A DNA stretch of 62,199 nt from a virus (Duplodnaviria > Caudoviricetes). Position 1 is the stretch's first letter; each line of letters opens with the position of its first letter. The notes below the pieces were generated by a model, which was not told where the DNA came from, ran no database searches, and saw only the letters and a list, made by a program, of their open reading frames with translations. Made by a program: the position numbers and the translations under genes. The DNA lies in the IMG/VR virus record IMGVR_UViG_3300043449_001468, positions 1 to 62,199 of that record, one strand, 5' to 3'. Below, piece after piece: positions 1,546-44,442 of the stretch.

Positions 1546-1557
1546 GTCTGCTATACT
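1529..1557 (+). promoter_or_regulatory. sigma70-type early promoter (TTGACT-N17-TATACT, extended -10 TG)
   Basis: Near-consensus boxes with 17-nt spacing upstream of gp55. Confidence 0.7.
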
Positions 1558-1604
1558 AAATGGTTCTACAGACTTTCATCCTACAGGTTTATTCTAGGAG
1601 GATC

Positions 1605-3232: not shown

Positions 3233-3234
3233 CC

Positions 3235-4947: not shown

Positions 4948-4954
4948 GAGGTAC

Positions 4955-7640: not shown

Positions 7641-7642
7641 GA

Positions 7643-7671
7643 TTGACATTCAACCTCAACTGTGAGATAAT
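7643..7671 (+). promoter_or_regulatory. sigma70-type promoter (TTGACA-N17-GATAAT), probably giving a leaderless mRNA
   Basis: Boxes visible; ATG 7679 lies 7 nt after the -10 box with no SD. Confidence 0.65.
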
Positions 7672-7678
7672 GTAGATT

Positions 7679-9262
7679 ATGGACAAACAATGGTACTACG
7701 AGCGCAACACAGAATTAATGGCATCTCCTGTTAATCGCACCTTTGAAGAACTCCTATGGATGACACAAGACGAATTCCGTCAATGGGTCGTTGATCTTCG
7801 CAAGACCGTGGTGCAACTGTGGGACGAGAAGGGTCAACCTCCTCGTGTTGGTTACGACACCGCCGAGATCATCGAACAGTTTCAGAACATGGAACCCACG
7901 GTCGTTCAAGCATTCGAGCAACTTGACGAATATACTGGGACGAAGGATGTGATTCGATGTACCTCAAATTTAGGGAATGCGGTCAATCAATTTTTTCCTT
8001 CGATGATGGCCACCAGAATCAATTATACCAAGGATCCTAACGCAGGAAAATCTATCTATGATTATTTTGCAAGACCTGAACTCCTAGAGACATTTATCAA
8101 GTACGCCACGCGGCATTTTAAGCGCGACAGTTTCTATCATTTTTCCCGCACCCTAGGTGCATCCGACATCTCCAAATATGGGGTGTTGCCTGTTGCGGCA
8201 ACGGGGAAAGAGTGGATTCTTGAATTTGAATCTGGGCACTATCGCAGCAAAGGATGGGACTATTGGTTGGCTCCTCGTGAAGAGGATGCCACCTATACCG
8301 GCTACAACGAAGAACTCAAGGGGAAGCAATATCTTCGGGTATCCAAAGATGAGATTGAAACTCTCGGTGCCACGATTCCAGACAAATGCAAGACCAATGT
8401 GGATTGGTCCAAGGGAGAATCCTATACGATCCGTGTGTTTGAGCGAGGCAACCGAGTATTCCCCGCTGGACTCAAGGCATTTCGGGTCTCATTCAGCCAA
8501 TACGCGGTGAATTGGCCACCATTGGCCGCAAAATATATTTACGAACGCTATACCGAACCATGGAAAAAAGAATCTACCATCTACTGTTGGGACCCATCAA
8601 GTGGATGGGGAGGTCGTCTACTTGGCGCCATGTCTGTCAAGGATGATCGTCACATTACCTATCTGGGCAATGACCCCAATACCGATCATAACACCACCCC
8701 AGGAAGAACGAAATACCACGAGATCTACGATTTCTATCGAACCCATGTGCAGAAAGGTGGGCTGTTCGGCGCAGAACATACAGGCTTCAAATTCTGGCAA
8801 CTAGGCTCTGAGGTGATGCAGTTTGACCCAGACTTCCAACAGTACAAAGGGAAGTTGAGTCTGGTGTTTACCAGTCCACCGTATTTCAGTAAAGAGCGAT
8901 ATTCAGAAGATCCTGCCCAATCTTGTATCAAATTTGATACATATGAGGCGTGGCGAGACGGTTTCCTCACGGAAACACTCAGAACGGCCTATGGGTGGCT
9001 ACGACCCGGAGGAATCATAGCGTGGAACATTGCCAACGCTACATTTGGCGGAATTCGTCTACCCCTTGAAACGGACTCTTGCAGTATACTCAATTCATTG
9101 GGCATGAAACACATCGAAACCCTCAAGCTCGCGTTGGCTCAAATGCCCGGAGGAAACAGAATAGATTCAACATCAGGAATTCCGAAAACTGAACACTTTT
9201 GCAAAGTGAACAATCTCTGGCTGAAATATGAACCTATACTAATTTGGAGGAAGCCTCTTTGA
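7679..9262 (+). CDS. DNA amino-methyltransferase-fold protein (N4C/N6A type) with long N-terminal extension
   Basis: SAM-binding DPSSGWGG (8591) followed by catalytic TSPPYF (SPPY at 8873); KYEPI C-terminus. Confidence 0.8.
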   Translation: MDKQWYYERNTELMASPVNRTFEELLWMTQDEFRQWVVDLRKTVVQLWDEKGQPPRVGYDTAEIIEQFQNMEPTVVQAFEQLDEYTGTKDVIRCTSNLGNAVNQFFPSMMATRINYTKDPNAGKSIYDYFARPELLETFIKYATRHFKRDSFYHFSRTLGASDISKYGVLPVAATGKEWILEFESGHYRSKGWDYWLAPREEDATYTGYNEELKGKQYLRVSKDEIETLGATIPDKCKTNVDWSKGESYTIRVFERGNRVFPAGLKAFRVSFSQYAVNWPPLAAKYIYERYTEPWKKESTIYCWDPSSGWGGRLLGAMSVKDDRHITYLGNDPNTDHNTTPGRTKYHEIYDFYRTHVQKGGLFGAEHTGFKFWQLGSEVMQFDPDFQQYKGKLSLVFTSPPYFSKERYSEDPAQSCIKFDTYEAWRDGFLTETLRTAYGWLRPGGIIAWNIANATFGGIRLPLETDSCSILNSLGMKHIETLKLALAQMPGGNRIDSTSGIPKTEHFCKVNNLWLKYEPILIWRKPL

Positions 9263-30821: not shown

Positions 30822-32048
30822 ATGGCGGAACAGACAGCAATACAAGAAACTGCACAGGCTCTTTTTTGTGCCATGGCAGACTTCATCGGCTCGGCAAAGT
30901 CTGATGTGGTGTTTGATCTGAAAAAATACCCAACATATCCCATATTCAAAGATAATTGGGATAGTACCTATAAGTCGGCATCTATCGATACCGTATACAA
31001 GACGAAAGTGGACGCTCCCACTGTGAGACTCGGTGAGATCGAAGGACTATTTCAGAAAGACCTTGATTGGTATAGATCTTCGGTACAGATTGCAAAAAAA
31101 CTTATTCATGAAATAGACAAAATTAGTAATAAATTCGTTCGAATTAAGTCTCCAAATTGGTCTGACCTGTTCTATGCTCGCGGCGACAAAGATGTAATGG
31201 ATAATATCGGGGCGTTGTTTAAGATCGCCAACGACACACAGAAAAAACTTCGAATGCTCAAGGACTCTCGTGCCCAGCTTCCATTTGGGAATATCAATAA
31301 GTGGTGTCCAGCTGATATCTATTTCTCTTCTCCTACCGCCAAACAAGAAATTAGACAGATGCTACAAGCCCGCAGGAATACATCAATGGAGTTTTCTGAT
31401 TTGAATAAGTTCATAGATAAACTGATCACCTCCGGGGAGTTGTTGCCCCTTTCACTCAAAAAACAACCAAAAGATGTGACGATTAAGTTGGTGAATTTCC
31501 AACCATCCCATGAAGAAAAAGAATTGTCAAAATATAAATTCGTGCGTACCAACGAATGGAAACCCTATACTCGCACCTCACCTCAGACTCGCGACTTCCA
31601 AATATTTTTTGATCCCACGAACCCAGGTCGACACATAAAAATGCGACATGACGCATCAGGAGCCATTCTAAAAGTTGAAGTGCAGGTACTTAATGTTAAG
31701 TCCAGAGAAGGGTCGATAGGATCGCCTGACATATTCGCCGAATTGATGATGTTGTCCGACCCAAAATCCCAAGGACATCGGGCTTTTCTGAAAGCGTACT
31801 TTGACGGTAACGCAATCTTCAAAAAATACGCAAACGAAAAAAGTCTCGTTCAGCTCAAAACACGCGACAGAAAGGCGTTTGATGACGCCCGAGGTGCACT
31901 AAGCGCATTGCATGTGACCAATGCATTCGTGCCTGTTCTACAGGACTGGTTCAGAGATACGAAGCGGGCCGACAGATTTGTGCGACTGCTGTTTGCATAT
32001 GTCACCTCTCGATCTTCCACGTCGAGCAAATTTGTTATCGCCAAATAA
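30822..32048 (+). CDS. hypothetical protein, possible PD-(D/E)xK nuclease fold
   Basis: QE..Q near the N-terminus, NKW.PADIY and LLPLSLKK motifs. Confidence 0.55.
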   Translation: MAEQTAIQETAQALFCAMADFIGSAKSDVVFDLKKYPTYPIFKDNWDSTYKSASIDTVYKTKVDAPTVRLGEIEGLFQKDLDWYRSSVQIAKKLIHEIDKISNKFVRIKSPNWSDLFYARGDKDVMDNIGALFKIANDTQKKLRMLKDSRAQLPFGNINKWCPADIYFSSPTAKQEIRQMLQARRNTSMEFSDLNKFIDKLITSGELLPLSLKKQPKDVTIKLVNFQPSHEEKELSKYKFVRTNEWKPYTRTSPQTRDFQIFFDPTNPGRHIKMRHDASGAILKVEVQVLNVKSREGSIGSPDIFAELMMLSDPKSQGHRAFLKAYFDGNAIFKKYANEKSLVQLKTRDRKAFDDARGALSALHVTNAFVPVLQDWFRDTKRADRFVRLLFAYVTSRSSTSSKFVIAK

Positions 32049-32062
32049 ACCGAAGGACACTG

Positions 32063-33286
32063 ATGCAACATTTCAAACAATACATCATCGAATCGACTGA
32101 CAAAAATTTACACTTGGTGCACCTTGAGGACCAGGTTTTGGATCGGGGAGTGGACGGTGCCCGTGAGGCCATCAATTTTCTGCGTTCTTTGCGGGACATG
32201 CTCTCCGGTCATGTCGAGAAGCCGATTAATGTGACTACCAAATGGGATGGGGCTCCAGCTGTGTTTTGTGGTATCAATCCTGAGAATGGGAAATTCTTTG
32301 TGGGCACCAAAGGAGTCTTTGCGAAGACTGCCAAGTTGAACTATACAGAGAAGGACATTGATGTGAATCATCCCGGAGAGGGACTGAACCACAAGTTAAA
32401 AATGTGTCTGTGGTACTTGCCTAAATTAGGTATTAGGAGTATCCTTCAGGGTGACTTGATGTTCACACGAGGGGATGTTCACTCCCAGACCATAGATGGG
32501 GAAAAGTATATCGCGTTCACGCCCAATACCATTACCTATGCGATACCACTCCATCAGACCGCGCTTGCAGATCGTATCTTGAAGGCACAGCTGGGTATTG
32601 TGTTTCACACGGAGTATCATGGTACCGCTATGGCCTCGTTGAAGGCCTCCTACAATGTTGATCTCGGTCATTTGACTCATACCAAGGATGTATGGTTCCG
32701 AGATGCGAGTTTTGTGGACACGTCTGGTATTGCAACATTTACCGTGGCAGAGATGGAGCAAATCAACGCCCTACTCAGCCGAGCAGGAAATTTATTCAGG
32801 GCGATCAATGGGAAAATCTTGAATCAAATTGCACTTAATAGTACCTATCGCACTTGGATCAAGACATTTAATAACACGAAGGTGCGGGCGGGTACCGCAA
32901 TAGACAATACCACAACACATACCAATGAGTTTATTCGATGGTTGGATGTCAAACTATCAGCGGCAATCGCCGAGGCGAAACAACCGGACACCAAACGAAA
33001 ACGTACACAAGAAAAGACCATCACATTGGGTTTTTTCCGCGCCCATGCGGCAGAACTACGCGCCATTTTTGACTTGCAAAATGCGTTGGTATATGCTAAA
33101 CTCATGATTGTGCATAAGTTGGGACAAGTACAAGGCACCCACACATTCCTGAAAACACCCGATGGATATGTAGCGACCAGCCCCGAAGGCTTTGTGGCGG
33201 TGGATCATATCGGCAATGCAGTCAAATTGGTTGACAGACTCACTTTCTCAAAGGCCAATTTTAATGCGGCAAAGGATTGGAACTAG
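32063..33286 (+). CDS. conserved T4-like protein (DUF6267-type) with nucleic-acid-ligase motifs
   Basis: KNLHL.HLED, TTKWDGAPA (KxDG), QGDLMF, PEGFVA, AVKLVDR..FS.ANF; N-terminus MQHFKQYIIE. Confidence 0.75.
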   Translation: MQHFKQYIIESTDKNLHLVHLEDQVLDRGVDGAREAINFLRSLRDMLSGHVEKPINVTTKWDGAPAVFCGINPENGKFFVGTKGVFAKTAKLNYTEKDIDVNHPGEGLNHKLKMCLWYLPKLGIRSILQGDLMFTRGDVHSQTIDGEKYIAFTPNTITYAIPLHQTALADRILKAQLGIVFHTEYHGTAMASLKASYNVDLGHLTHTKDVWFRDASFVDTSGIATFTVAEMEQINALLSRAGNLFRAINGKILNQIALNSTYRTWIKTFNNTKVRAGTAIDNTTTHTNEFIRWLDVKLSAAIAEAKQPDTKRKRTQEKTITLGFFRAHAAELRAIFDLQNALVYAKLMIVHKLGQVQGTHTFLKTPDGYVATSPEGFVAVDHIGNAVKLVDRLTFSKANFNAAKDWN

Positions 33287-33288
33287 CT

Positions 33289-33585
33289 ATGCTTGGGAAA
33301 TATGTGAAACCATTGCACGAAGAATACGGCGCAGGAGAAGATGGATCGGAAGAAGCCTCAGTCAAGTACCAGAAAGATACCCCAGGGCAGGAAAAAGCTC
33401 ATATGCCTCTGAGAAAGAGGAAGACGTTCAAGTTACATCATGAACTTCCTGAGCAATATGGCATGGCAGGCGAGACATTACCTGAACCGTCCTTGGGAGA
33501 AAATGATCCCTCTCATTCTAAGACACTACATACTATCAAGAGATTGCTCAGAGGGAAATACAAGAAAGGTCGATCTTTTATCTAA
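33289..33585 (+). CDS. hypothetical protein
   Basis: LHEEYGAGE.G ... Y.KDTPGQ and LHE motifs. Confidence 0.6.
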   Translation: MLGKYVKPLHEEYGAGEDGSEEASVKYQKDTPGQEKAHMPLRKRKTFKLHHELPEQYGMAGETLPEPSLGENDPSHSKTLHTIKRLLRGKYKKGRSFI

Positions 33586-33608
33586 TCACCTATAGCATGA
33601 GGTATATT

Positions 33609-34490
33609 ATGTTCCAGCGAGACTTGGTCATCGGTGCAATCACAGGCTACACATGGAAAGACATTAAATATTGGGTCAACTCCCTAGATCGATCTGGCTT
33701 TAATGGCATTAAAGCCGTCGTTGCCTATAATGTGGATTATGCCACTTGCGATGAGCTGACCAAGCGAGGATACAAAGTCCTTACCTTCCAAAAAGACGAT
33801 GCCAACGGAAGAGTTACTTATCCTAATCCAAATTTTAATATTGTAGTGGATCGGTTCTTGCATTACTATCAAATGCTTGATACTCAGGAGAACCGTAACG
33901 GTATTCGATATGTGATTGCCACAGATGTCAAGGATGTGATCTTCCAACGAAACCCCTCAGAGTATCTGGACGTTCCAGCGATACGCTGCATCGACCTGGT
34001 CATGTCCTCCGAGGGCATCCAATATAAAAACGAGGCCTGGGGTGCCAATAATCTTCGCGAATCGTTTGGCCCGTTGATGTATCACAAGCATGCTGACAAC
34101 ACGATTGTCAACTGTGGGGTCCTTGCTGGCAAGTTTGATGTGTTCCTAGGTCTCTGTAAGACCATTTATCTTCTGTGTGCCCACAATAGACAGTTCATAC
34201 CTGGAGGTGGTGGGCCTGATCAAGCGGCACTCAACTTACTCTTGAACACTCCAGTCTATGATCACATCACCAGCATTACCACGCACGAGGACCCTTGGGC
34301 TGCCCAGCTCGGCACTACGCTCGATCCTACTAAAATAAACACCTATAAACCTTTACTCACTGAACGCCAACCTATTTGGGATTGGACGGAGAACCTGATG
34401 ATCACCCCTAAGGGTAAACCGTATACCTGTGTGCATCAGTGGGACCGTGTTCCTGAAGTACGAGCCGCCGTGGAAAGGATATACGGATAA
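33609..34490 (+). CDS. GT-A-like glycosyltransferase
   Basis: YVIATDVKDVIFQRNP, NCGV.AG, DQAALN, HQWDR. Confidence 0.75.
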   Translation: MFQRDLVIGAITGYTWKDIKYWVNSLDRSGFNGIKAVVAYNVDYATCDELTKRGYKVLTFQKDDANGRVTYPNPNFNIVVDRFLHYYQMLDTQENRNGIRYVIATDVKDVIFQRNPSEYLDVPAIRCIDLVMSSEGIQYKNEAWGANNLRESFGPLMYHKHADNTIVNCGVLAGKFDVFLGLCKTIYLLCAHNRQFIPGGGGPDQAALNLLLNTPVYDHITSITTHEDPWAAQLGTTLDPTKINTYKPLLTERQPIWDWTENLMITPKGKPYTCVHQWDRVPEVRAAVERIYG

Positions 34491-35500
34491 TGTCAGATGA
34501 TGAAACCTTAGAGTCTCCTGTATTACGCACCTTACCCACACATGCCAAGCGCATTTTGTATGTAGTCCATAGGTATGGGTATCCCGGTGGATCCGAGCAA
34601 TATACCAAAGATATGGCGGAAGAAACCCGTGCCAGGGGGCATGTGGTGGCGGTATTTGCAGGAGAGCACCAAGGAAACTTCAACGGCGTGAGGGTCTCCT
34701 CGGAGACCAAGATCCTACAGGAGCCATGGGATTTAATTGTGGTGCACGGTGGTGATGTGGCAGTCCAAGATTTTGTATTACAGCATGCCGCTAAACTGGG
34801 AGGACCTGTTCTGTATCTGCTCATTCTTCCCTCACACTCTCTCAATTGCGTGAGAGCACTACGGAACGTCCGATATATTGGATGCTCCACGTTGGCAGAT
34901 TGGAGACACGTAGAATCTTATGGGGTAAGAGACCGTTCGGTTCGTGTGCGCCACGGCATTGTCCCATCCACCTCTAAAGGGACTTCTGGGTTTCGCGAGA
35001 AATTTAATATCACAACCCCGTATATGTTTCTCTCCTCAGGAGGATACTGGCCCAATAAAGCCTTTGCTGAATTGGTAGATGCCTTCGAGAGTCTTGGTCG
35101 TACCGATGCCACGTTGGTACTCACTGGCTATGATAATCGACATGGACTGATGCCCAAGGAATCAACATATGTCAAACCGTTCCTGTTCCCCAATCGCGAG
35201 GATAGTCTTGCAGCACTCCATGCCGCAGACCTCTATATCTTGAATAGCTACACTGAGGGGTTTGGACTGGTGCTGCTGGAATCGATGCTTAATTTAACTC
35301 CTTGGTGTGCCAGAGAGATTGCGGGGGGCGAGGTCATGCGAGAGTATGGGTTTACCTATACCTCACCCGGAGAATTAAAGCTCCATCTACAATCATTCCG
35401 AGGAGTCTCCAATAGTCACCTAGAAGATGCGTATAAGTATGTCATGTCAACCCATCTGATTCGACACACCGTGGATGATATCTTGAAGGTGTTAGGATGA
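34490..35500 (+). CDS. GT4-family (GT-B) glycosyltransferase
   Basis: GGSE, NK, ADLYILNS..EGFGLVLLESM. Confidence 0.88.
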   Translation: MSDDETLESPVLRTLPTHAKRILYVVHRYGYPGGSEQYTKDMAEETRARGHVVAVFAGEHQGNFNGVRVSSETKILQEPWDLIVVHGGDVAVQDFVLQHAAKLGGPVLYLLILPSHSLNCVRALRNVRYIGCSTLADWRHVESYGVRDRSVRVRHGIVPSTSKGTSGFREKFNITTPYMFLSSGGYWPNKAFAELVDAFESLGRTDATLVLTGYDNRHGLMPKESTYVKPFLFPNREDSLAALHAADLYILNSYTEGFGLVLLESMLNLTPWCAREIAGGEVMREYGFTYTSPGELKLHLQSFRGVSNSHLEDAYKYVMSTHLIRHTVDDILKVLG

Positions 35501-35955
35501 ATATTACATTTGGGATTTGTACTACCTATGAGGATATTCCTCGTCTGAATGAGGTGATTTCCTCTATCAAAACGTTGAATGCCCCGAATGCAGAGATCAT
35601 CGTGGTCGGATCTTATCAGCACGATTGGCGAGGGGTAGATTCTTCCGTGCAGCACATTCTTACCGATGGAGGAACCCCAGTCAAGACGAACCTTCTGGCG
35701 AAGTTTGCACGTTACGACACCCTTTGGATAACTTCCTGTCCAGATCTATTCGATCCTGTCTGGTATTCACATTGGACATTGTTTCACGAAAGTTGTGGTT
35801 GGGATGTGATAACATATCCTCGGCATCTTTGTGTTAAACGAGATTTTCTAAGGGCCACTCCGTTCAATGAGGATGTGACCCCCAGTGATAGTGAAGATCT
35901 GGATTGGTGTACTCACATTCGTGATACCGCACGAATTTTCCATCATTTTGCATGA
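35497..35955 (+). CDS. short, degenerate GT2-like paralog
   Basis: N-terminus ITFGI...RL.E...SI..L.....EI.V.G matches the next gene; lacks the HDY motif and has internal deletions. Confidence 0.55.
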   Translation: MNITFGICTTYEDIPRLNEVISSIKTLNAPNAEIIVVGSYQHDWRGVDSSVQHILTDGGTPVKTNLLAKFARYDTLWITSCPDLFDPVWYSHWTLFHESCGWDVITYPRHLCVKRDFLRATPFNEDVTPSDSEDLDWCTHIRDTARIFHHFA

Positions 35956-35974
35956 TTGTGACGAAGGACATACT

Positions 35975-36658
35975 ATGACATTCACGTTTGGTATTATTTC
36001 CGATTACAGAGCACCTGAACGCCTTCAGGAGATGTATACGTCCATCCGTGCTCTTGGTATACCCCCCACTGCATATGAGATCCTGGTGATTGGCAACGCC
36101 ATATTACCTGACGAACAGGATGTGAGGCATATTCCGTTTGATGAGACGCAGAAACCGATGTGGGTTACTCGCAAGAAGAATATTTTGGATCAAGAAGCCC
36201 GATTTGAAAATCTTGTGGTGGCACATGATTACTATGTGTTCCATCCTGCATGGTATTCCAACTATCTGATGTTCGGGAATGATTGGGAAGTGTGTTCTAA
36301 TGCCCAGCATCTGATGGATGGGTCACGACATTTCTCCGATTGGGTCACTTGGGACTCCCCGTTCTATCCACGATATACCTCGCTGCCCTACGACGATTGG
36401 AGTCACACTAAGTATATGTACCAGTCGGGAGGATATATGGTAGTCAAAAAGGGTGTGTTGTCCAAATTCCCTATGAATGAAACTAAGGGGTGGGGGACTG
36501 CCGAAGATGTCGAGTGGAGTCTTATAATACGGTCCCGCCTAGTGTGGAAATGTAATGGTCGCAGTGTGGTTCGACACAATAAGGCGCATCGTGATCTGGG
36601 ACGACAAGGGTTTCCTTTCAAACAACTCATACACAATAGGACTGAATATGCCCAATAA
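35975..36658 (+). CDS. GT2-like glycosyltransferase
   Basis: FTFGI, W.TRKKN, HDY, AEDVEWS. Confidence 0.75.
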   Translation: MTFTFGIISDYRAPERLQEMYTSIRALGIPPTAYEILVIGNAILPDEQDVRHIPFDETQKPMWVTRKKNILDQEARFENLVVAHDYYVFHPAWYSNYLMFGNDWEVCSNAQHLMDGSRHFSDWVTWDSPFYPRYTSLPYDDWSHTKYMYQSGGYMVVKKGVLSKFPMNETKGWGTAEDVEWSLIIRSRLVWKCNGRSVVRHNKAHRDLGRQGFPFKQLIHNRTEYAQ

Positions 36659-38012
36659 ATTAGTGATATGGGACTTAGATGGTGTGCTATTGAATAGCCG
36701 CGAGATTCATTTTAAGGCATTGAATCTCGCACTTCCTCTAGAATATCAAATTAGTTGGGAGGAGCATCTTTCCAAGTATGATGGACTGCCAACCACAAAG
36801 AAACTGCGACTACTTACGGATGAAAAAGGATTGCCAGCAGATATGTATGATGACATATGGGCAGCCAAGCAATACCATACCATAGAATTATATAAAAATA
36901 TTCGCCCAGATCGTGCCTTGCTGGATATGATGTTACATTTGAAAGAGAATAATATCCGCATTGCTGTGGCGTCGAATAGTATTCGCAACACGATGGTCAT
37001 GGCACTTTCGCGATTGGGCATCATCGAACAGATTGACTACATGGTCTCTAATGAGGATGTGAAGCACCCGAAACCTTTTCCGGAGATGTATTGGCAGGCG
37101 ATGACCGCGATGAAAACATTGCCCGCACATACGGTGATTATTGAGGATTCCCATATTGGACGGGAGGCCGCATTGTCCTCTTGCGCCCACTTGATTCCAG
37201 TGCGAGATTCTACGGATCTGAACGATGATCTAATTCTAGGTATCATTAATCATTTGAATGGCGTGTCTCGTGTGCCGATTCCATGGCGCAACAAGAAAAT
37301 GAATGTTGTGATCCCTATGGCAGGACATGGTTCGAGGTTTGCTCAGGCTGGATATACGTTCCCCAAGCCTTTGATTGACGTGAACGGAAAGCCGATGATT
37401 CAGGTTGTAGTAGAAAATCTCAATATCGATGCCCACTATATATTCATAGTTCAAAAGGAGCATTATACCAAATATCAACTACAATACATGCTCAATATGA
37501 TTTCTCCTGGGTGCGACATTATTCAGGTGGAAGGAGTGACCGAGGGAGCGGCATGTACGGTACTGTTAGCCAAGGCCTTGATCGACACGGGAGATCCGCT
37601 GCTAATAGCGAACTCCGATCAATCCGTGGAATGGAATTCTAACGAATGTCTATATGCGTTTACGGCCGATGGGATTGATGGGGGTATTCTTACGTTTAAG
37701 TGTGTTCATCCTCAATACTCCTATGCAAAGTTAGACGCCGAGGGGTTTGTCTCTGAGGTGGCAGAAAAGAAAGTGATTTCAGATATTGCCACGGTGGGGG
37801 TGTATTATTGGAAACGAGGGTCTGACTTTGTGAAGTATGCCGAACAGATGATAGCTAAGAATATTCGTACCAACAATGAGTTTTATGTGTGCCCTGTGTA
37901 CAATGAAATGATTCTAGATGGGAAAAGGATACGAATCAAGAATATCCAAAAGATGTGGGGTTTGGGAACTCCCGAAGACTTGACTTACTATCTCAGGGAG
38001 CACCATCGATGA
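36648..38012 (+). CDS. HAD phosphatase fused to sugar nucleotidyltransferase
   Basis: DLDGVL, KP.PE.Y, EDS..G (HAD); IPMAG.GSRF...GY..PKPLI, NSDQ, EKK, GLGTPEDL (NTP transferase). Confidence 0.9.
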   Translation: MPNKLVIWDLDGVLLNSREIHFKALNLALPLEYQISWEEHLSKYDGLPTTKKLRLLTDEKGLPADMYDDIWAAKQYHTIELYKNIRPDRALLDMMLHLKENNIRIAVASNSIRNTMVMALSRLGIIEQIDYMVSNEDVKHPKPFPEMYWQAMTAMKTLPAHTVIIEDSHIGREAALSSCAHLIPVRDSTDLNDDLILGIINHLNGVSRVPIPWRNKKMNVVIPMAGHGSRFAQAGYTFPKPLIDVNGKPMIQVVVENLNIDAHYIFIVQKEHYTKYQLQYMLNMISPGCDIIQVEGVTEGAACTVLLAKALIDTGDPLLIANSDQSVEWNSNECLYAFTADGIDGGILTFKCVHPQYSYAKLDAEGFVSEVAEKKVISDIATVGVYYWKRGSDFVKYAEQMIAKNIRTNNEFYVCPVYNEMILDGKRIRIKNIQKMWGLGTPEDLTYYLREHHR

Positions 38013-38326
38013 GGCATTCGAGACTGGAGGACTACACCAGAGGATGGTTCATTGGCGACTTTGAACCCGCATTACTACGCACCAAAGACTTTGAGGTCTC
38101 TGTCTTTGTGCGAAAGAAAGGGACTCCTCCAGATCCGCATTATCATCATGTCGCCGAGGAATATAATGTATTAATCTCCGGCAGACTGAGCATCAATGGG
38201 TATGAGTTGGTATCGGGTGATGTATTTGTCATCGAACGAGATGAAGTGACCTCATGTGTGTATCATGAGGATTGTACTATTGTGGCCGTGAAAGTTCCAT
38301 CATGTATAGGAGATAAGTATGTTTAA
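38009..38326 (+). CDS. cupin-fold protein
   Basis: GWFIGDFEP, HYH....EY, GD.F, VK.PS...DKY. Confidence 0.75.
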   Translation: MRHSRLEDYTRGWFIGDFEPALLRTKDFEVSVFVRKKGTPPDPHYHHVAEEYNVLISGRLSINGYELVSGDVFVIERDEVTSCVYHEDCTIVAVKVPSCIGDKYV

Positions 38327-39539
38327 TATTTTTAGAGCATCTGAAGATTCCATCCATGAGTCGGATAATTTAGATCCAGAAAAGTACCTCATGGTTCACT
38401 ATGATCTTGAGAGTACGGTGAGTGTTGAGAAAGCGGCATTTGATCTTGCGATTGGACAAAGTGTGGGTAACCCCAACATCCGCAATCGATGGGAAACCGA
38501 TGAGTTGTTTGAGAAGTATTCTTGTAGGGTGGATACTCCTAGAGGATTTCTACGGGATAAGACACGCGCCGAGGTGACGATTGCGTTTCCTGTGATCAAT
38601 ACGGATTGGGATGGGGATGGCATCGCACATTTACTATGCCAGGTGCTCGGCGGGCAAGCTGATATCGGACATATCATCCGCTGTAGGATCAATGGCTTCA
38701 CATTTCCCCGCTCTGTGACTAGTCGATTCTCCCCGCCTCGGTTTGGCATGAGCGGGCTTCGTGCGTTCACGGGGCAAGCTGATAAGCCATTGTTCGGCGG
38801 AATCATTAAACCTAAGACTGGGCTGCCCCCCGATCAATTGCTCGATATGGTCAGGGAGTTGGTAGATGGGGGGGTGGATTTCATTAAGGAGGACGAGATT
38901 CTTTCCAATCCCGCTTTCTGTTCATTGGAGAATCGAGTCCCGCTTATTGCCAGATACATACAATCATGTGGTCGCAACGTGATTTATTGTTTCTCTATCA
39001 ATGGGGACCCACACACAATTGAACAACGAGCGATATATCTGGCCAATGAGGGGGCCAATGGGGTGCATATAAATTTTTGGAGTGGATTGGGAGCCTATCA
39101 TACCATTCGCCGACTGAACCTCCCCCTATTTCTACACTTCCAAAAGAGCGGCGATAAGGTTATTACACATAAAGGAAATGCCTTTGGTATGTCGTGGTTT
39201 GCCATGTGCCAGCTTGCCGCACTCTCCGGAGTGGACTCCATTCATGCCGGAATGTTTGGAGGTTATATGAACAGTGATACGATAGAGTTGAAGTCGGTCA
39301 TGGATCTCCTTGGGAATAGTAATGTGGTGCCCGCCTTATCCTGTGGGATGCATCCTGGGCTTGTGGAACATGTCACCAAGAATGTTGGGGTCGATTATAT
39401 GGCTAATGTCGGCGGTGCGTTGCATGGGCATCCAGGAGGCACTCTTGCCGGATGTAAGGCCATGCGACAGGCCATCGACCACAGCCACGGACTAGAATAT
39501 GAACAGGCGATTCAAACCTGGGGGTTGACCCATGAATGA
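38319..39539 (+). CDS. RuBisCO-like protein (form IV)
   Basis: A..QS.G, GGIIKPKTGL, GGVDFIKEDE, GVDSIHAG, PALSCG.HP, GGALHGHPGG..AG..A.RQA. Confidence 0.9.
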   Translation: MFNIFRASEDSIHESDNLDPEKYLMVHYDLESTVSVEKAAFDLAIGQSVGNPNIRNRWETDELFEKYSCRVDTPRGFLRDKTRAEVTIAFPVINTDWDGDGIAHLLCQVLGGQADIGHIIRCRINGFTFPRSVTSRFSPPRFGMSGLRAFTGQADKPLFGGIIKPKTGLPPDQLLDMVRELVDGGVDFIKEDEILSNPAFCSLENRVPLIARYIQSCGRNVIYCFSINGDPHTIEQRAIYLANEGANGVHINFWSGLGAYHTIRRLNLPLFLHFQKSGDKVITHKGNAFGMSWFAMCQLAALSGVDSIHAGMFGGYMNSDTIELKSVMDLLGNSNVVPALSCGMHPGLVEHVTKNVGVDYMANVGGALHGHPGGTLAGCKAMRQAIDHSHGLEYEQAIQTWGLTHE

Positions 39540-40323
39540 TCTATCGGTATGGATTCTAACATTCAATAGACCCTATGCGCTAAACCGACTCATTACTGAA
39601 TTGGGGCGACAAGGTATTCGTTCTAACGTACTATCAAATTATTCATCTGTACAATATACCAAAGAATCTATGTCGTATGTGGACAAGACGGTGATCAATA
39701 CGCTCAACACCGACGAGTCCAACGCATGGTGTGGGCGCAGCTGGAATAGTATCATGCTGAAGGCATTCTCTGTCTCGCCTAATCTCATCATGATTCAAGA
39801 TGACACGTTTGTGCGACCGCATTTCTCCGCATGGTTCGAGTCCAATAGGAAGAAGTATGATTTTATTTGGGGGCCAGCAGGGGATCAATTCTTCTATCTA
39901 ACCTTGAATGTGTTGCGTACTACTGGGTGGTTCGATGAGCGATTCACTTCCGGATATTGTGGCGATGCTGATTTTTTGAAGCGGGTATGTGCGTCATATC
40001 CTCTCAGTAAAATTAGCGTTGAGGAGTCCCACGACTGGGGATTCCGCCATAACCCAATCGGGACCTCTGAGGTCATCATCACCGATTTGGGTAGCAAGCA
40101 GATCGACCCCAATTATGAAAATGCCCACTGGTACATGGAACGGCTCAAGACCAAGGAAATTAACCGCAATTTGGAATATTCTCAGGGATACTTTCTTCGG
40201 AAATGGGGGCACGTTTTGAATAACAATCAGCCTGTGATAAATTCAAATGTGCGATTAATAGAGGAGATTGATTGGTATCCATGGGCCACCAAGAAATATG
40301 AGGTCACCGCATATGATCTATAA
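39532..40323 (+). CDS. GT2-like glycosyltransferase
   Basis: ILTFNR, WN, IQDD, GWFDERF..G...DADF. Confidence 0.75.
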   Translation: MNDLSVWILTFNRPYALNRLITELGRQGIRSNVLSNYSSVQYTKESMSYVDKTVINTLNTDESNAWCGRSWNSIMLKAFSVSPNLIMIQDDTFVRPHFSAWFESNRKKYDFIWGPAGDQFFYLTLNVLRTTGWFDERFTSGYCGDADFLKRVCASYPLSKISVEESHDWGFRHNPIGTSEVIITDLGSKQIDPNYENAHWYMERLKTKEINRNLEYSQGYFLRKWGHVLNNNQPVINSNVRLIEEIDWYPWATKKYEVTAYDL

Positions 40324-40964
40324 TCTGTTCCAAAATAATATACAATTCGAATGGAACACCAAGCGATTGAATAAATTGGTGTCGCTTCTTGGTCCTAGAT
40401 GGTTTGCAGGTAAAAAAATCCTAGAAGTGGGGGCTGGCCATGGCAGCACAGGGAAGTCCTTGTTGTGGCTGGGGGCTCATGTTGTGTTTACGGATGCGCG
40501 GAGTGTTCATGTAAACCACCTCAAATCCTGCGGACTGGATGCCCATATAATGGATCAGGATTCTGAGTGGACCATCCAAGGTCCATTTGATTTGATTATC
40601 CACTGGGGGGGTGTCGTACCATCTTAGAAATTGGCAGCAAGATCTGAGGTGTGCGTTCAATCGATCCTCCTTGGTATGTTTTGAAACTGAGGTTGCGGAC
40701 TCACCTTCCGCGGACTTTGAGTCTACGCTCACCGAAATTGATCACTATGATCAGGCGTTTAATCGAGTGGGAACCTTGCTGTCTCCAGCCAGGATAGAAT
40801 CCTTCCTCGCCGAGCATAATATGACGGCGACTAGGTATGATACCCCCGATATAGACACCGGAGGGACCGCCAAATGGTATTCGTGGAAACCAGGATCCAC
40901 AACACCTGACGATGTTCGGTGCCGGCGCCTGCGGCGCTTTTGGATGATTAGGAGAAAACTATGA
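40313..40964 (+). pseudogene. class I SAM methyltransferase split by one extra G in a G7 tract
   Basis: ILEVGAGHG ... DLIIHWG in frame 40313-40627 continues as VSYHL..W..DL in the 40611-40964 frame. Confidence 0.8.
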
Positions 40965-41491
40965 AGATAATCGTTGAAATTGGGGCACATACAGGCATGG
41001 AGACCCTCAAGTTTTTGGCAGATCCTGATGCCCAGGTCTATGCGTTTGAGCCGGAACAGCATCTATTTGCTCAACTCTATCAGCGATACGGATCGTACCC
41101 ACGACTCACGGTGCTCCCTTTCGCGGTGGACATCGGGGACAATCAAGGACCACTCTTCCACTACGGCGATGGCAAGAGTACATTAGATCCTCCCATGTTC
41201 GGAGGCCCTCAGGCTGCATTTACGATGACGTGGACCATTAGACTCGACACCTTTATGCGACTCTATGACATCGAGAAGATTGATTATCTTCGTATCGATG
41301 CTCCATGGCGAGAGGAAATGTGCCTTGAAAGTCTTGGGGATCGTGTAAAAGACGTTGAGCGTGGGCGCATTCGGAGATATGACCCCAAGGGACCTGTCCC
41401 TGCGTGGCTCTATGATCATGGGTTTTCTATGCAACTAGATAGTTTAGTGGATCGCATAACTGAGCCGGACATTAGGTTTTGGCGTCAATAG
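40961..41491 (+). CDS. FkbM-family methyltransferase
   Basis: VEIGAHTG, VYAFEP, TIRLDTF, IDYLRID. Confidence 0.8.
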   Translation: MKIIVEIGAHTGMETLKFLADPDAQVYAFEPEQHLFAQLYQRYGSYPRLTVLPFAVDIGDNQGPLFHYGDGKSTLDPPMFGGPQAAFTMTWTIRLDTFMRLYDIEKIDYLRIDAPWREEMCLESLGDRVKDVERGRIRRYDPKGPVPAWLYDHGFSMQLDSLVDRITEPDIRFWRQ

Positions 41492-41523
41492 GTATAGATG
41501 GGTGATACATATAGGAGAAACCT

Positions 41524-41994
41524 ATGATTCTCATCTCCCATAGAGGAAATATCGAAGGGGCTGATACATGGTTAGAAAACACCCCCAACTATATCGACAA
41601 TGCTATTGCGCTTGGGTATCAGGTGGAAGTGGATGTATGGGGAGAGGACGGTGTATTGTGGTTGGGGCATGATCGCCCCATGTACAAAATCACTCCTGAG
41701 TGGTTGGACCAACGCGGCGATGTGTTGTGGTTACACTGCAAGAATGTCCACGCTCTGAGTATTCTCATGCAGGACTTTCCATGGATTCGCTACTTTCTCC
41801 ATAACAAAGATCCATATGCGATGGTGAATTTGGGGTATATTTGGTGCTATCCTTCTGCCCCACCTCCAGTATCCAAGGGTATTATTGTGCTTCCTGAGAC
41901 ATGGCTCTCCAAGGAGGAGACCTCTTCATATGTTTCCTCTCATCACGCTGAGGGAATTTGCTCAGATTATATCGCAAGATACCAGAACATATAA
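41524..41994 (+). CDS. glycerophosphodiester phosphodiesterase-like protein
   Basis: ISHRGN, ENTP, VEVDVW, LGHD, LHCKN, GICSDY. Confidence 0.8.
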   Translation: MILISHRGNIEGADTWLENTPNYIDNAIALGYQVEVDVWGEDGVLWLGHDRPMYKITPEWLDQRGDVLWLHCKNVHALSILMQDFPWIRYFLHNKDPYAMVNLGYIWCYPSAPPPVSKGIIVLPETWLSKEETSSYVSSHHAEGICSDYIARYQNI

Positions 41995-41997
41995 ATA
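41990..41997 (+). promoter_or_regulatory. T4-type late promoter TATAAATA
   Basis: Exact match upstream of the 42034 ORF. Confidence 0.75.
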
Positions 41998-42033
41998 GAT
42001 AACTAGACATCATACTCCTGTAGAGGGACTTTC

Positions 42034-44442
42034 ATGATACCACTGCATCTACCCAAACATGGGCTCAATCTCGACAGATCTTCGCTGCCCCAGGTCTCCT
42101 CAAAAGACGTTCCTGACTATCTCTCGTGGCTCAGAACGCACAAACACATCTCCTCCAATCGCACCGAAATGCCTGTCAACTCTTTGTTTTCATCCCAAGG
42201 TAACTTCAATGCCACAAAGATTCGGGCCCTGATGACCCATAAGCGGGAGGAACTCAGGAAACCCATTATTGTGTCGGGGGACCATTATGTGGTGGATGGG
42301 CATCATAGATGGATAGCATTGTGTAATCTTGATCCCACTGATACGATTCCTGTGGTTCTGGTGCATGCCAAGATCCTAGATCTCCTTGCGGCCACCAAGG
42401 AGTACCCCAAGTCATTTACCAAGACTGTCGTGGAATCGTTCAGCACAATCACGGAAGCCGCCGAGAAGCATGCCGTTCTTGCGTTTGGAAGACTCAATCC
42501 TCCCACCTCAGGGCACGCCAAATTGGTAGATAAAGTCCATGATGTGGCAGAACGCCATGGTGCGCGCCATGAAGTAGTAATGTCGCATACGCAGGACTCC
42601 AAGAAAAACCCTCTGTCTGGGGCGCAAAAACTCAAGCATGCCAAACGATTCTTTCCAGATACCAATCTATCGGTGTCCACAGCACAGGCGCCATCAATTT
42701 TCCATCATGCCGCCAAACTCTATAAGGCCGGGCATCAACATCTACATGTGGTCGCAGGAGCTGATAGACTCAAAGAATTTGGCACCGAACTTCATAAATA
42801 TAACGGTCACTTTGACAAAGACGGACATGGCTACAAGTTCAAATCAATTACCATGCATTCTGCTGGGGCGAGAGACCCAGAATCAGAGGGGGTCGAGGGC
42901 ATGTCTGCTGGCAAGTTGCGACATCTTGCTTCTATCGGAAACTTCAAAGAATTCAAAAAAGGGGTTCCTGCCCATGTATCTCAGACTCATGCCAAGGAAC
43001 TCTATCAGGATGTTCGCAAAGGAATGGGACATATGAACGAGCAAGTGGATCTGTTGAGTGAAGGAGTACATGATTCGTCAATATTCAAAGCCATATTCGT
43101 GACGGGGGCCCCAGGTTCAGGTAAAGACTTTGTGCTCAAGAAGTCACTCAATGGACATGGGCTTACTGAGATTAATTCGGATCATGCGCTCGAATTTCTC
43201 ATGGACAAGAACAAGCTGGACAAGAAAATGCCAGAATCTGAGCAAGAGAAGCGCGGGGTGATTCGCGATAAAGCCAAATCACTCACTGAACTTCGGCAAC
43301 GTCTTGCTTTGTCTGGGCGCAACGGATTAATCGTTAATTCCACAGGCGCAAAACTTGAGCAGATCAAAAAAATAAAAGACAAGCTCGAAGAACTTGGCTA
43401 CGATACCAAGATGGTATTTGTAGACGTATCGGATAATGTTAGTCGGAACCGCAATGTCGAACGCGGCCAACGTGGCGGTCGCATGATTCCTGAGAAGATC
43501 AGGGCCGAGAAATGGCGCCAGGCGCAAGACTCTCGTGTTCAGTTTTCCAAGGTGTTTGGTGCTGAACATTATCACGAATTTAACAACGAAGAAGATTTAC
43601 GACACAACGCAGATCCTGAGGTTGCGGGTCAAAAACACAAAGAACTTGATGCACTCTTCAAGACGGTGCGTAAATTTACACAGCAACCTCCAAAATCTGA
43701 GGTGGCGCACGAATGGATTCATACCAATTTGGGTAAGCTGGCCAAGCAACCCATCGGCAACAAGATACAGCAGACGAAGGCCTCACAAACGCCCCCCGCC
43801 TCAGATTCCCAAGCGGCAGAGGAAGCTAGAAAACTAGGGCTCCAATACTACGGATATGGTCGATATGGTAAGAACGGGCATGTGACCCATTTTTCACTTC
43901 ATGGTAGATTAGTCGAAAAGAAAAAAGCATTAATTCCCCCAAAACCCCAAACCCCCAATGTGCCTAAGAAGCTCAACGAAGCATTTGAGGAACTATTCAA
44001 CAAGGAGAACGATGATGTCAATCTACGACTGGAGCATTACCTGGAAAATTCTGTGCTGGTGGGAAGACCTGAAGTTCCACACTCGCCGCGTACTTTCGCG
44101 GAAACCAGAGAAGTGTTGCGAGAACGATTCGCTGTGTCAGGGGGACGATACGGAGACCATCATGACATTCGAGGAGCCTCCCAAGAGGAAGGTCTCCAAG
44201 AAGAAGTCTCCAGTCAAAAAGACCGCGAAGAAAGTAAAAAAGTCAGCTTCCAAGGATTTAGGCGACAACTGGTAACACTCACTGAAGGTGAACCTGTCTT
44301 GGGAGGCGGCGAAGAGGACCAGGGCTCTGTGCTTTCGTCTAATTCAAGCAAAGAGGCCATCGGAGGAGGATTGACCTCCGATAAACCCGTGACTACGCCA
44401 CGCCGCAAGAAATTGTTTTCAGATCTCAAGCGGGGGAAATAA
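42034..44442 (+). CDS. multidomain protein: ParB/Srx-like + HIGH-type nucleotidyltransferase + P-loop (Pnk/zeta-like) kinase
   Basis: VVDGHHRW; FGRLNPPTSGH ... VAGADR ... MSAGKLR; GAPGSGKD (43105) ... RN.ERG; domains separated by Glu-containing linkers. Confidence 0.85.
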   Translation: MIPLHLPKHGLNLDRSSLPQVSSKDVPDYLSWLRTHKHISSNRTEMPVNSLFSSQGNFNATKIRALMTHKREELRKPIIVSGDHYVVDGHHRWIALCNLDPTDTIPVVLVHAKILDLLAATKEYPKSFTKTVVESFSTITEAAEKHAVLAFGRLNPPTSGHAKLVDKVHDVAERHGARHEVVMSHTQDSKKNPLSGAQKLKHAKRFFPDTNLSVSTAQAPSIFHHAAKLYKAGHQHLHVVAGADRLKEFGTELHKYNGHFDKDGHGYKFKSITMHSAGARDPESEGVEGMSAGKLRHLASIGNFKEFKKGVPAHVSQTHAKELYQDVRKGMGHMNEQVDLLSEGVHDSSIFKAIFVTGAPGSGKDFVLKKSLNGHGLTEINSDHALEFLMDKNKLDKKMPESEQEKRGVIRDKAKSLTELRQRLALSGRNGLIVNSTGAKLEQIKKIKDKLEELGYDTKMVFVDVSDNVSRNRNVERGQRGGRMIPEKIRAEKWRQAQDSRVQFSKVFGAEHYHEFNNEEDLRHNADPEVAGQKHKELDALFKTVRKFTQQPPKSEVAHEWIHTNLGKLAKQPIGNKIQQTKASQTPPASDSQAAEEARKLGLQYYGYGRYGKNGHVTHFSLHGRLVEKKKALIPPKPQTPNVPKKLNEAFEELFNKENDDVNLRLEHYLENSVLVGRPEVPHSPRTFAETREVLRERFAVSGGRYGDHHDIRGASQEEGLQEEVSSQKDREESKKVSFQGFRRQLVTLTEGEPVLGGGEEDQGSVLSSNSSKEAIGGGLTSDKPVTTPRRKKLFSDLKRGK
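44012..44275 (+). CDS. candidate nested out-of-frame gene (87 aa, Lys-rich tail)
   Basis: AAGGAG SD just upstream of ATG 44012; KKKSPVKKTAKKVKKS tail; lies entirely inside the 42034 ORF. Confidence 0.45.
   Translation: MMSIYDWSITWKILCWWEDLKFHTRRVLSRKPEKCCENDSLCQGDDTETIMTFEEPPKRKVSKKKSPVKKTAKKVKKSASKDLGDNW

Follow-up and report, generated by a model that had tools for sequence, protein, structure and literature searches.

The 62,199-base IMG/VR viral record IMGVR_UViG_3300043449_001468 (Duplodnaviria; Caudoviricetes), analysed over its whole length and called the window below, contains an island of glycan-related genes in which a 406-aa form IV RuBisCO-like protein (RLP) is encoded at 38319-39539 on the + strand. 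We estimate at roughly 60% the probability that this RLP serves as the signature enzyme in a conserved, mobile cassette whose product, a nucleotide-activated non-standard sugar (or sugar or polyol phosphate), is used to decorate glycans. The estimate is carried by the gene content of the cassette, the conserved adjacency of its genes, fusion proteins that join them, the separate clade formed by the RLPs and an active site specific to this clade.

An IMG/VR pattern scan gave 231 viral stretches with relatives of the RLP; 80 loci (53-76% identity) were kept, and their RLPs fell into 36 clusters at 85% identity. For gene content, 20 proteins of the window were compared with the 80 loci by tblastn. 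In 79 of them the nucleotidyltransferase (NTase) half of the window's HAD-NTase fusion protein was found beside the RLP and in the same orientation; in the sole miss (L063) the RLP starts 759 nucleotides (nt) from the start of the DNA. A small cupin was present in 63 loci and a minimal GDPD-like phosphodiesterase (mini-GDPD) in 62, while the DUF6267 gene that borders the island in the window was matched in six. The HAD half of the fusion was confined to the closest relatives (L003-L013 and L016) and two further loci, with L002 matched in the NTase half only. The usual order is NTase, cupin and RLP, followed by 0-5 other genes and the mini-GDPD, all on one strand; a subgroup without the cupin has the order mini-GDPD, NTase, RLP. 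The conserved unit is thus a four-part cassette of NTase, cupin, RLP and mini-GDPD and not the whole island, and the island of the window is one version of this cassette in a variable shell of nucleotide-sugar and glycan genes.

The shell differs from locus to locus. Viral flanks contained NAD-dependent epimerases, several kinds of methyltransferases, glycosyltransferases of the GT2, GT25 and GT17 families, WavE, UDP-galactopyranose mutase, GDP-mannose dehydratase, DegT aminotransferase, 3-dehydroquinate-synthase-like (DHQ-synthase-like) proteins, APH-like kinase, short-chain dehydrogenases/reductases (SDRs) and radical-SAM enzymes. The commonest accessory family of the viral loci, open reading frame (ORF) family 4 (e.g. 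L080:5218-5970), was represented in 32 of 81 loci by 40 distinct sequences, often with two or three copies per locus, and matched DUF7796 only (7.8e-10).

A scan of cellular genomes, with one genome per prokaryotic species, gave 39 more loci (34-59% identity). The carriers included SAR11 single cells, a complete Pelagibacter chromosome, Woese-, Nano-, Pace- and Micrarchaeota (DPANN), Verrucomicrobia, Elusimicrobia, Azospirillum oleiclasticum, three Legionella species, metagenome-assembled genomes (MAGs) of Tatlockia and Francisellaceae, Turneriella, Sphingobacteriales and Balneola. The NTase was beside the RLP in 36 of the 39 loci, the three misses being short contigs with the RLP no more than ~660 nt from an end. 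A GDPD-type neighbour was detected in 21 loci by hidden Markov models (HMMs) and in two others by tblastn, and was full-length in DPANN loci; the cupin was detected in seven loci by HMM and in two by tblastn. Among 142 neighbouring ORFs there were nine GDP-mannose dehydratases/epimerases, eight GT2 proteins and six Pfam GDPDs, as well as methyltransferases, WavE and DegT. In Azospirillum the order is mini-GDPD, RLP, cupin and NTase, then CysD, CysNC and GT41. The neighbours in phages and cells alike are therefore nucleotide-sugar and glycan genes, a supporting context for the proposed role. That linkage to an NTase would prove to be conserved had been left to a neighbourhood survey by a preliminary description of the window, made from its sequence without database searches; the viral and cellular counts above, and the existence of fusion proteins, have now established it.

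Some of the cellular loci deserve separate comment. In L085, L090 and other short contigs labelled as cellular (Crocinitomicaceae, a Methanobacteriota MAG) the RLPs were nested among viral sequences of the tree described below, and such contigs are probably phage fragments binned with cells. L087, from the complete Pelagibacter chromosome, carries at 752-9176 an HAD-NTase fusion 50% identical to that of the window, and a second NTase directly before the RLP, 5 kb from the fusion gene; its mini-GDPD was matched by tblastn in two pieces and may be frameshifted. In L102 (SAR11) NTase-like genes flank the RLP, in the order mini-GDPD, NTase, RLP, NTase by tblastn, and ORFs of the same sizes occur in the L102 order in the SAR11 single cells L097 and L099-L105.

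We searched 1.8 billion cluster representatives for fusion proteins. P0123 (667 aa) combines the RLP with the NTase, P0270 and P0271 (813 and 817 aa) combine the RLP, NTase and cupin, and P0170, a partial sequence, joins the mini-GDPD to the RLP. Hence the NTase, the cupin and the mini-GDPD are each covalently joined to the RLP in some protein, and of the computational evidence available this points most strongly to a shared pathway. The same search returned other architectures. P0164 has an RLP of this clade after ~330 residues with no family match and ends at residue 487; P0183 is a 583-aa fusion of a TIR domain to an RLP, too long for inclusion in the tree, that could represent a defence-type architecture. 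P0156 and P0166 are fusions of IF-2B (ribose-1,5-bisphosphate-isomerase-type) to a RuBisCO with full N- and C-terminal domain matches, a type of fusion mentioned for the AMP pathway by Jaffe et al. 2019 (PMC6389311).

Membership of the window RLP in the RuBisCO large-subunit superfamily is clear from its match to PF00016 (2e-39; 136.1 bits with a cut-off of 30.1) and from 99 RuBisCO or RLP sequences of the PDB matching at E<=0.001, the best of them the RLP 3nwr (6e-45). The motifs quoted in the preliminary description were exact: IKPK at residues 163-166, KEDE starting at K190 (base 38886) and HFQKS at 273-277. Carboxylating RuBisCO relies, in spinach numbering, on residues E60, T65, W66, N123, K175, K177, K201, D203, E204, H294, R295, H298, H327, K334, S379, G380, G381, G403 and G404. 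In the window RLP residues K164, K166, K190, D192 and E193 are kept and the substrate-binding residues are replaced, so that its designation as a form IV RLP was correct. Alignments with 2cwx and with the clade gave the substitutions E60Q, T65N, W66P, N123G, H294Q, R295K, H298D, K334Y and G380C; the loop-6 lysine was rightly described as missing, with Y316 in its place. The protein reached 173 bits against the rubisco_III model (cut-off 497), and this result, together with the incomplete set of carboxylase residues, agrees with the earlier statement that it does not fix CO2. It also failed both models of MtnW (NF007095, 139 bits with a cut-off of 409; TIGR03332, 107.6 with a cut-off of 513.6) and the OiaX model NF042437 (160.6 bits and 5e-47, with a cut-off of 700), and stayed below the cut-off of every curated NCBIfam model.

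The phylogeny was built with FastTree from 173 rows (37 viral, 30 cellular and 106 representatives), leaving out rows longer than 500 or shorter than 340 aa and near-duplicates at >=85%. All viral and cellular NTase-linked RLPs fell, along with 17 representatives, into one clade of 84 rows with SH-like support of 99. The 89 rows across this branch include P0243, a true MtnW (606 bits on NF007095, cut-off 409), the OiaX-like P0202 (524 bits, cut-off 700) and the form III RuBisCO P0149; NCBIfam labels were available for ten tree rows, nine outside the clade and one, P0134, at its base. The preliminary description had named two outcomes as grounds for giving up its proposal, an RLP that groups with methionine-salvage enolases and shows their activity, or a linkage to NTase and glycosyltransferase genes that is not conserved. 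The conserved RLP-NTase linkage and the separate clade mean that such grounds were not encountered, and the position of the RLP outside the MtnW grouping, with its scores below the MtnW cut-offs, speaks against a methionine-salvage enolase.

This bears on an explanation in which the cassette is a catabolic module, similar to methionine salvage, that recycles a nucleoside-derived sugar during infection, with the NTase a mere neighbour. In the Bacillus methionine salvage pathway the RLP MtnW (YkrW) is the 2,3-diketo-5-methylthiopentyl-1-phosphate enolase and works with MtnX, a HAD protein, and MtnD, a cupin dioxygenase. The likeness is real: RLP, HAD and cupin folds occur together in the window as they do in Bacillus, and MtnW likewise enolises a keto-sugar phosphate without CO2. 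Form III and form IV enzymes elsewhere serve nucleotide or methionine salvage, and the IF-2B-RuBisCO fusions did turn up in our search of representatives. However, the constant partner of the window RLP is an NTase and not a phosphatase or dioxygenase; no other partner is universal, and in some proteins the NTase and the RLP form a single chain. The HAD domain is beta-phosphoglucomutase-like and is fused to the NTase in the closest relatives only, the cupin has no match to any acireductone dioxygenase family, and among 19 ORFs scanned around the RLP no MtnA-, MtnB- or MtnK-like family was matched. As the RLP fails the MtnW models and the true MtnW P0243 lies on the other side of the tree, we consider a salvage function very doubtful.

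The clade has an active site of its own. Residues equivalent to K175, K177, K201, D203, E204, S379, G381 and G403 were kept in 83-84 of the 84 rows, and the replacements are just as fixed: Q60 in 84/84, Q294 and Y334 in 83/83, C380 in 82/83, and N65, P66 and G123 in 83/84. A retained core combined with invariant replacements is the pattern of a working active site, one expected to enolise a phosphorylated carbonyl on Mg2+ without carboxylation. One could suppose that the RLP is a non-catalytic scaffold or regulator, linked to its neighbours by co-mobility within islands and not by shared chemistry, given that several canonical RuBisCO residues were lost. Yet 83-84 of the 84 rows share the same Mg/carbamate ligands and P1 phosphate loop, Q294, Y334 and C380, which replace the lost residues, are themselves invariant, as in an active site under use, and the fusion of the RLP to the NTase and cupin argues for shared chemistry; a non-catalytic role therefore seems to us hardly credible. 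At the positions equivalent to H292, R295, H298 and H327 we observed subclade signatures, HKDH (in the window), FKDH, HSAQ and HRIH. When the presence of the cupin was compared with RLP residues 273, 276, 279 and 309, no clean correlation appeared, only these subclade signatures.

The gene that precedes the cupin and RLP encodes the fusion of a HAD (beta-phosphoglucomutase-like) domain to a sugar-phosphate NTase (36648-38012, +; the ORF opens at 36555 and M32 is the likely start). The fusion, which had been proposed from the sequence, was borne out by matches to HAD_2 (5e-27, 95.5 bits) and NTP_transferase (PF00483; 8e-11, 42.4 bits with a cut-off of 21.2) and by a DxDG motif ('WDLDGV') and a GxGSR loop, PMAGHGSRF, with AGHGSRF at ORF residues 255-261. 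Its NTase half, with PF00483 above the cut-off and a G-x-G-(S/T)-R loop, has the features of a sugar-phosphate nucleotidyltransferase; the best PDB match was 4evw (1e-17), and the nearest solved relatives are NDP-sugar pyrophosphorylases. The HAD half has the features of HAD subfamily IA (beta-PGM/CbbY-like) and matched beta-phosphoglucomutase (beta-PGM) structures best (4e-14). It scored 83 bits against TIGR02009, below the cut-off, and 74.5 against the equivalog bPGM model (cut-off 189.4), so that it is not a bona fide beta-PGM.

The cupin, a small metal-binding monocupin (38009-38326, +; ORF opening at 37955, conserved start M19; phrog_24762, 2.5e-28), was also correctly recognised before. 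Residues H62, H64, E69 and G76 of the 123-aa ORF (HxH-x4-E-x6-G) were invariant in 51 sequences, and the AlphaFold2 (AF2) model, with pLDDT of 89, matched monocupins in Foldseek with probability 1.00, among them KdgF, the archaeal phosphomannose isomerase 7zvm and sugar-phosphate isomerase cupins. Motif 1 and the beta-barrel fold of the cupin superfamily are thus both present, with Pfam Cupin_2 reaching just 0.045. The last gene of the island encodes the mini-GDPD, a minimal GDPD-like metal phosphodiesterase of 156 aa (41524-41994, +). Residues H6, R7, E18, N19, E35, D37 and H49 (HRG, EN, ExD, HD) were invariant in 50 sequences; the family profile matched the GDPD 7e0v (1e-4), and the AF2 model (pLDDT 93) had GDPDs as its top Foldseek/PDB folds, with TM ~0.56 (0.34-0.43 when normalised to the target). 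These results support its earlier description as a GDPD-like enzyme. Like GDPD (PF03009) it has the catalytic HRG, EN, ExD and HD residues, and its fold starts as a TIM barrel, but with ~150 residues it lacks the complete barrel of ~240, and no Pfam family matched at E<=0.01.

From these parts we infer a pathway, including the kind of reaction, the sequence in which the enzymes act, the substrate, the product and the target. The RLP, through its intact carbamyl-lysine/Mg2+ site, would enolise a phosphorylated keto-sugar drawn from central metabolism and would move or invert a centre by isomerisation or epimerisation, with no carboxylation; it is the retained RuBisCO-family core, whose chemistry is established for the family, that suggests this type of reaction. 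The small metal cupin could work alongside it as a ketol-isomerase or epimerase. The beta-phosphoglucomutase-like HAD domain present in this phage might reposition or trim the phosphate, after which the fused NTase would join the product to a nucleoside monophosphate. The variable glycosyltransferases and O-methyltransferases of the island would then use and decorate the activated product, and the mini-GDPD may handle a phosphodiester of the same pathway. Since cellular homologues are situated in surface-polysaccharide loci, the target is most likely a glycan of the host envelope during infection. The idea of a biosynthetic RLP feeding nucleotide activation was already present in the preliminary description; NTase linkage and glycan context favour it, whereas nothing indicates the 'branched' sugar that was suggested as a possible product. 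A stronger statement, that the NTase-linked clade is the committed enzyme of an unrecognised and widely mobile pathway from a central keto-sugar phosphate to a new nucleotide-activated sugar or sugar phosphate, we make only tentatively, at a little short of even odds.

Several considerations weigh against the cassette as a source of activated sugars. Functions within the clade are predicted from sequences and models. Adjacency and fusion show coupling and not direction, so the pathway could consume a nucleotide-linked compound, and a hydrolase of GDPD type has no obvious place in a biosynthetic route. Many loci do without the HAD domain or the cupin; thus the proposed order of steps is not universal. 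The subclade signatures at R295, H298 and H327 differ, which means that substrates, in their distal part, may differ within the clade. Cyanophages carry an HAD-NTase and a mini-GDPD without an RLP, therefore the NTase module does not need the RLP. There are also technical reasons for caution: the RLP tree was made by FastTree alone and its root is provisional, fusion proteins of metagenomic origin could include read-through artefacts, and some of the 'viral' and small 'cellular' contigs may be misassigned.

The constancy of the GDPD-type enzyme leads to an alternative in which the product is a soluble or lipid-linked phosphodiester. Here the RLP would supply a polyol or keto-sugar phosphate, the NTase would convert it into a CDP derivative, and LicD- or GDPD-like transfer or trimming would give a teichoic-like substituent, a head group or a solute; CDP-ribitol, CDP-glycerol and CDP-glucitol chemistry provides a precedent for the transfer of phospho-units. 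The GDPD-type enzyme is the third most constant partner (62/80 viral and 23/39 cellular loci), DPANN loci often contain little beyond RLP, NTase and GDPD, and in four of four Legionellaceae loci a LicD-family phosphotransferase gene lies beside the RLP-NTase pair, at a distance of 0.5-2.2 kb. One glycosyltransferase family of the window (263 aa, see below) weakly resembles TarP, a teichoic-acid glycosyltransferase. LicD is confined, though, to one lineage: a tblastn search with a Legionella query gave no LicD in the 80 viral loci, three cyanophage loci or the window. Furthermore, glycosyltransferases and enzymes that modify NDP-sugars abound in most loci, and the nearest solved relatives of the NTase are the NDP-sugar pyrophosphorylases. 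The GDPD partner and the Legionella LicD keep a CDP-linked phospho-unit variant open, and we rate it as unlikely.

The cyanophage loci make the relation between the parts clearer. An HAD-NTase with an adjacent mini-GDPD was found within glycosyltransferase islands of the cyanomyoviruses S-CAM9, S-PRM1, B3/B23, S-8S55 and DSL-LC03, the proteins being 59-65% (HAD-NTase) and 35-44% (mini-GDPD) identical to those of the window; three cyanophage loci (S-CAM9, S-SM2 and B3) were checked for a homologue of the cupin and had none. S-SM2 has a tandem NTase and a mini-GDPD together with a transketolase, a class II aldolase, SIS isomerases and a sugar kinase. The NTase and GDPD pair is, then, a platform fed by different sugar-phosphate enzymes, among them the RLP, alone or together with the cupin. 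In the Synechococcus phage S-SM2 (L083) the protein annotated as 'dN-sugar pyrophosphorylase' at 7001-8569 consists of two NTase-like halves in tandem, which probably explains the 495 positions of PHROG 3980; the NTase homologue of S-SKS1 is annotated as a DHBP synthase. The RLP itself had no tblastn match among 50,697 deposited phage records, a collection from which close relatives of the window may be missing.

RLPs of phages have been described before. In their main text Jaffe et al. 2019 (Mol Biol Evol 36:435; PMC6389311) reported ~80 non-redundant form IV-like RLPs on phage contigs from many environments, some of them of Myoviridae, with 'possible functionality unclear'; these were highly divergent from other RLPs, had no carboxylase residues and grouped with a few cellular sequences. 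The window likewise is a myovirus-type contig with a divergent RLP in a clade that has some cellular members, and by this match, made by description only, the two clades may be the same. The words 'glycosyl', 'nucleotidyl' and 'polysaccharide' do not occur in the main text of that paper, and the genome maps in its supplementary figure S1 may show the neighbours; relative to the main text, what is added here is the NTase/cupin/GDPD cassette, its fusion proteins and the loci from SAR11, DPANN and Legionella. A full-text literature search, which reached few subscription papers, found no RLP-NTase or RLP-glycan link. It appears, therefore, that phage RLPs as such were already known and that what is new is their obligate coupling to an NTase, their association with a cupin and a mini-GDPD, the fusion proteins and the spread of the cassette through glycan loci of SAR11, DPANN and Legionella.

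Several other RLPs have assigned reactions. The RLP of R. rubrum is an isomerase. OiaX and OiaT are RLPs that Carter et al. 2018 reportedly placed in D-apiose catabolism, with OiaX said to be a 3-oxo-isoapionate-4-phosphate decarboxylase. By score OiaX and 3nwr are the nearest curated and solved relatives of the window RLP, and both act on sugar-acid phosphates. The differences are in the active site, where 3nwr keeps H294, R295 and K334 and the phage clade has Q, K and Y, and in the context, which is catabolic for OiaX and 3nwr and a glycan island for the window RLP.

The window is a whole viral record with an estimated completeness of 37%. It contains T4-type replication genes for a family B DNA polymerase (PolB; 48% identity to cyanomyovirus counterparts), a DnaB-like helicase, an SbcC-like nuclease and a ribonucleotide reductase, and the closest relative of its DUF6267 protein is in Methylophilales phage Melnitz (44% identity). 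On the strength of the T4-type genes and the DUF6267 relatives we take the window to be from a real, uncultured T4-like phage. No tRNA genes or Rfam families were found in the 62,199 bases, and megablast of 33000-43000 against the 50,697 deposited phage records gave no match. All genes of the island are on the + strand (33597-41994), and neighbours overlap or are at most 39 nt apart; promoter-like sites (23, with 22.0 expected from shuffled sequence) and terminator-like sites (12, with 9.3 expected) were not in excess.

The island is an 8.4-kb same-strand insertion between the DUF6267 gene on the left (32063-33286, +; PF19782, 4e-111) and, on the right, a gene for a cytidylyltransferase-like protein with a P-loop kinase (zeta/AAA_33-like) domain (42034-44442, +; phrog_3041 cytidyltransferase, 1.6e-61; Zeta_toxin, AAA_33). 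According to the preliminary description these two genes, 8.7 kb apart in the window, are usually neighbours, and in both of the phages examined their homologues are close, being adjacent in S-WAM2 and ~400 bp apart in Melnitz. The product of 42034-44442 has 802 aa, with cytidylyltransferase-like and zeta-toxin/AAA_33-type kinase domains and a weakly ParB-like N-terminus, and it is shorter homologues of this protein that come after DUF6267 in Melnitz and S-WAM2. Just upstream of the DUF6267 gene, at 30822-32048, a 408-aa ORF with a weak LAGLIDADG_3 match (E 0.0047, below the cut-off) may be a homing-endonuclease-like gene.

With such surroundings one could think of the cassette as the supplier of an activated sugar for hypermodification of phage DNA, shielding the genome from host nucleases. 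T4-like phages do glucosylate their DNA, the phage of the window is T4-like, and its island lies among replication and nucleotide genes (PolB, DnaB-like helicase, ribonucleotide reductase, a 2-oxoglutarate-dependent (2OG) oxygenase and the cytidylyltransferase-kinase). On the other hand, the cassette is present in chromosomes of SAR11, Verrucomicrobia, Turneriella, Legionella and Azospirillum beside genes of lipopolysaccharide (LPS) or capsule type; FkbM- and CmcI-type O-methyltransferases and WavE point to polysaccharides, and no DNA glycosyltransferase family was detected. We regard DNA hypermodification as very improbable.

The glycosyltransferase and methyltransferase genes of the window were each matched by tblastn in only 9-15 of the 80 viral loci, which places them in the variable shell, outside the conserved unit. 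Five glycosyltransferase-like genes had been proposed for the island; the gene at 34490-35500 passes a Pfam threshold, and the evidence for the other four, two GT-A-like genes by profile or by Atlas, one weak PHROG/Atlas lead and one truncated paralogue, is weaker. The first gene (33597-34490, +) encodes a 297-aa glycosyltransferase-like protein with a weak match to phrog_1579 glycosyltransferase (9.4e-6), no Pfam match and a family profile without a PDB match; it falls into Atlas viral clusters, in one of which 10% of members carry PF03407 (a lead only), and it was matched in 15 of the 80 loci. The second (34490-35500, +) encodes a GT4 glycosyltransferase of 336 aa (Glycos_transf_1, 3.8e-10, 40 bits with a cut-off of 26.4; phrog_2170, 9e-13), matched in 12 loci. 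The next two are tandem GT-A-like paralogues from a family that is present as a single copy, not two, in relatives. The first of the pair (35497-35955, +; 152 aa) was shortened by internal deletions and is 27% identical (BLASTP, 5e-14) to the product of the ORF at 35885-36658. For this latter ORF relatives align only from residue 27-31 on, and a GT-A (GT2-like) glycosyltransferase of ~227 aa starting at M31 (35975-36658, +) was annotated, with a family profile that matches the PDB glycosyltransferase 8bz4 (7e-7). The fifth gene (39532-40323, +), whose start overlaps the RLP stop, encodes a GT2-like glycosyltransferase of 263 aa. One member of its family matches Glyco_tranf_2_2 (4.8e-5), the profile reaches TarP 6h1j weakly (0.0057), a structure match in the Atlas leads to a GT2 cluster (TM 0.79), and the gene was found in 15 of the 80 loci.

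Two methyltransferases had also been described; there are indeed two genes, which make up three ORFs, as one of the genes is frameshifted. This is the gene for a SAM-dependent methyltransferase at 40268-40964 (+; Methyltransf_23, 2.5e-5 in the window), with the frameshift near 40608. The ORFs 40268-40627 and 40611-40964 are parts of one gene, since a 220-aa relative (Methyltransf_23, 6e-9) aligns with them in frame +3 and then in frame +1, its residue 107 falling at the frame junction, and relatives have a single ORF of 215-248 aa. The frameshift reflects either an assembly error or a pseudogene. The second gene (40961-41491, +) encodes an FkbM-type methyltransferase of 176 aa (Methyltransf_21, 5.5e-6, 27 bits with a cut-off of 22.7; phrog_8156).

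To our knowledge, every function assigned to an RLP so far belongs to salvage or catabolism. RLPs are a classic case of one fold gaining new chemistry, and a nucleotide-sugar-linked clade would add a new kind of role to the family. If the proposed role of the cassette is true, it would be the first anabolic, glycan-building role of a RuBisCO-family enzyme, and it would assign a function to the phage RLPs for which this was left open in 2019. Yooseph et al. 2007 noted new groups of marine RuBisCO homologues in Global Ocean Sampling (GOS) data; we conjecture that the clade covers part of these unplaced sequences. The clade occurs on over 200 viral contigs as well as in SAR11, DPANN archaea, Verrucomicrobia, Legionella and Azospirillum, and judging from the genes, what it makes is probably a new cell-surface monosaccharide or phospho-substituent. 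The function is directly testable, as the cassette is small, triple-fusion proteins exist in nature and some carriers, such as Azospirillum oleiclasticum RWY-5-1-1 (locus L113), are in culture. If the reading holds, T4-like phages would remodel the glycans on the surface of abundant hosts such as SAR11, and the phage cassette would then bear on receptor masking and host-range dynamics in the most abundant bacteria of the ocean.

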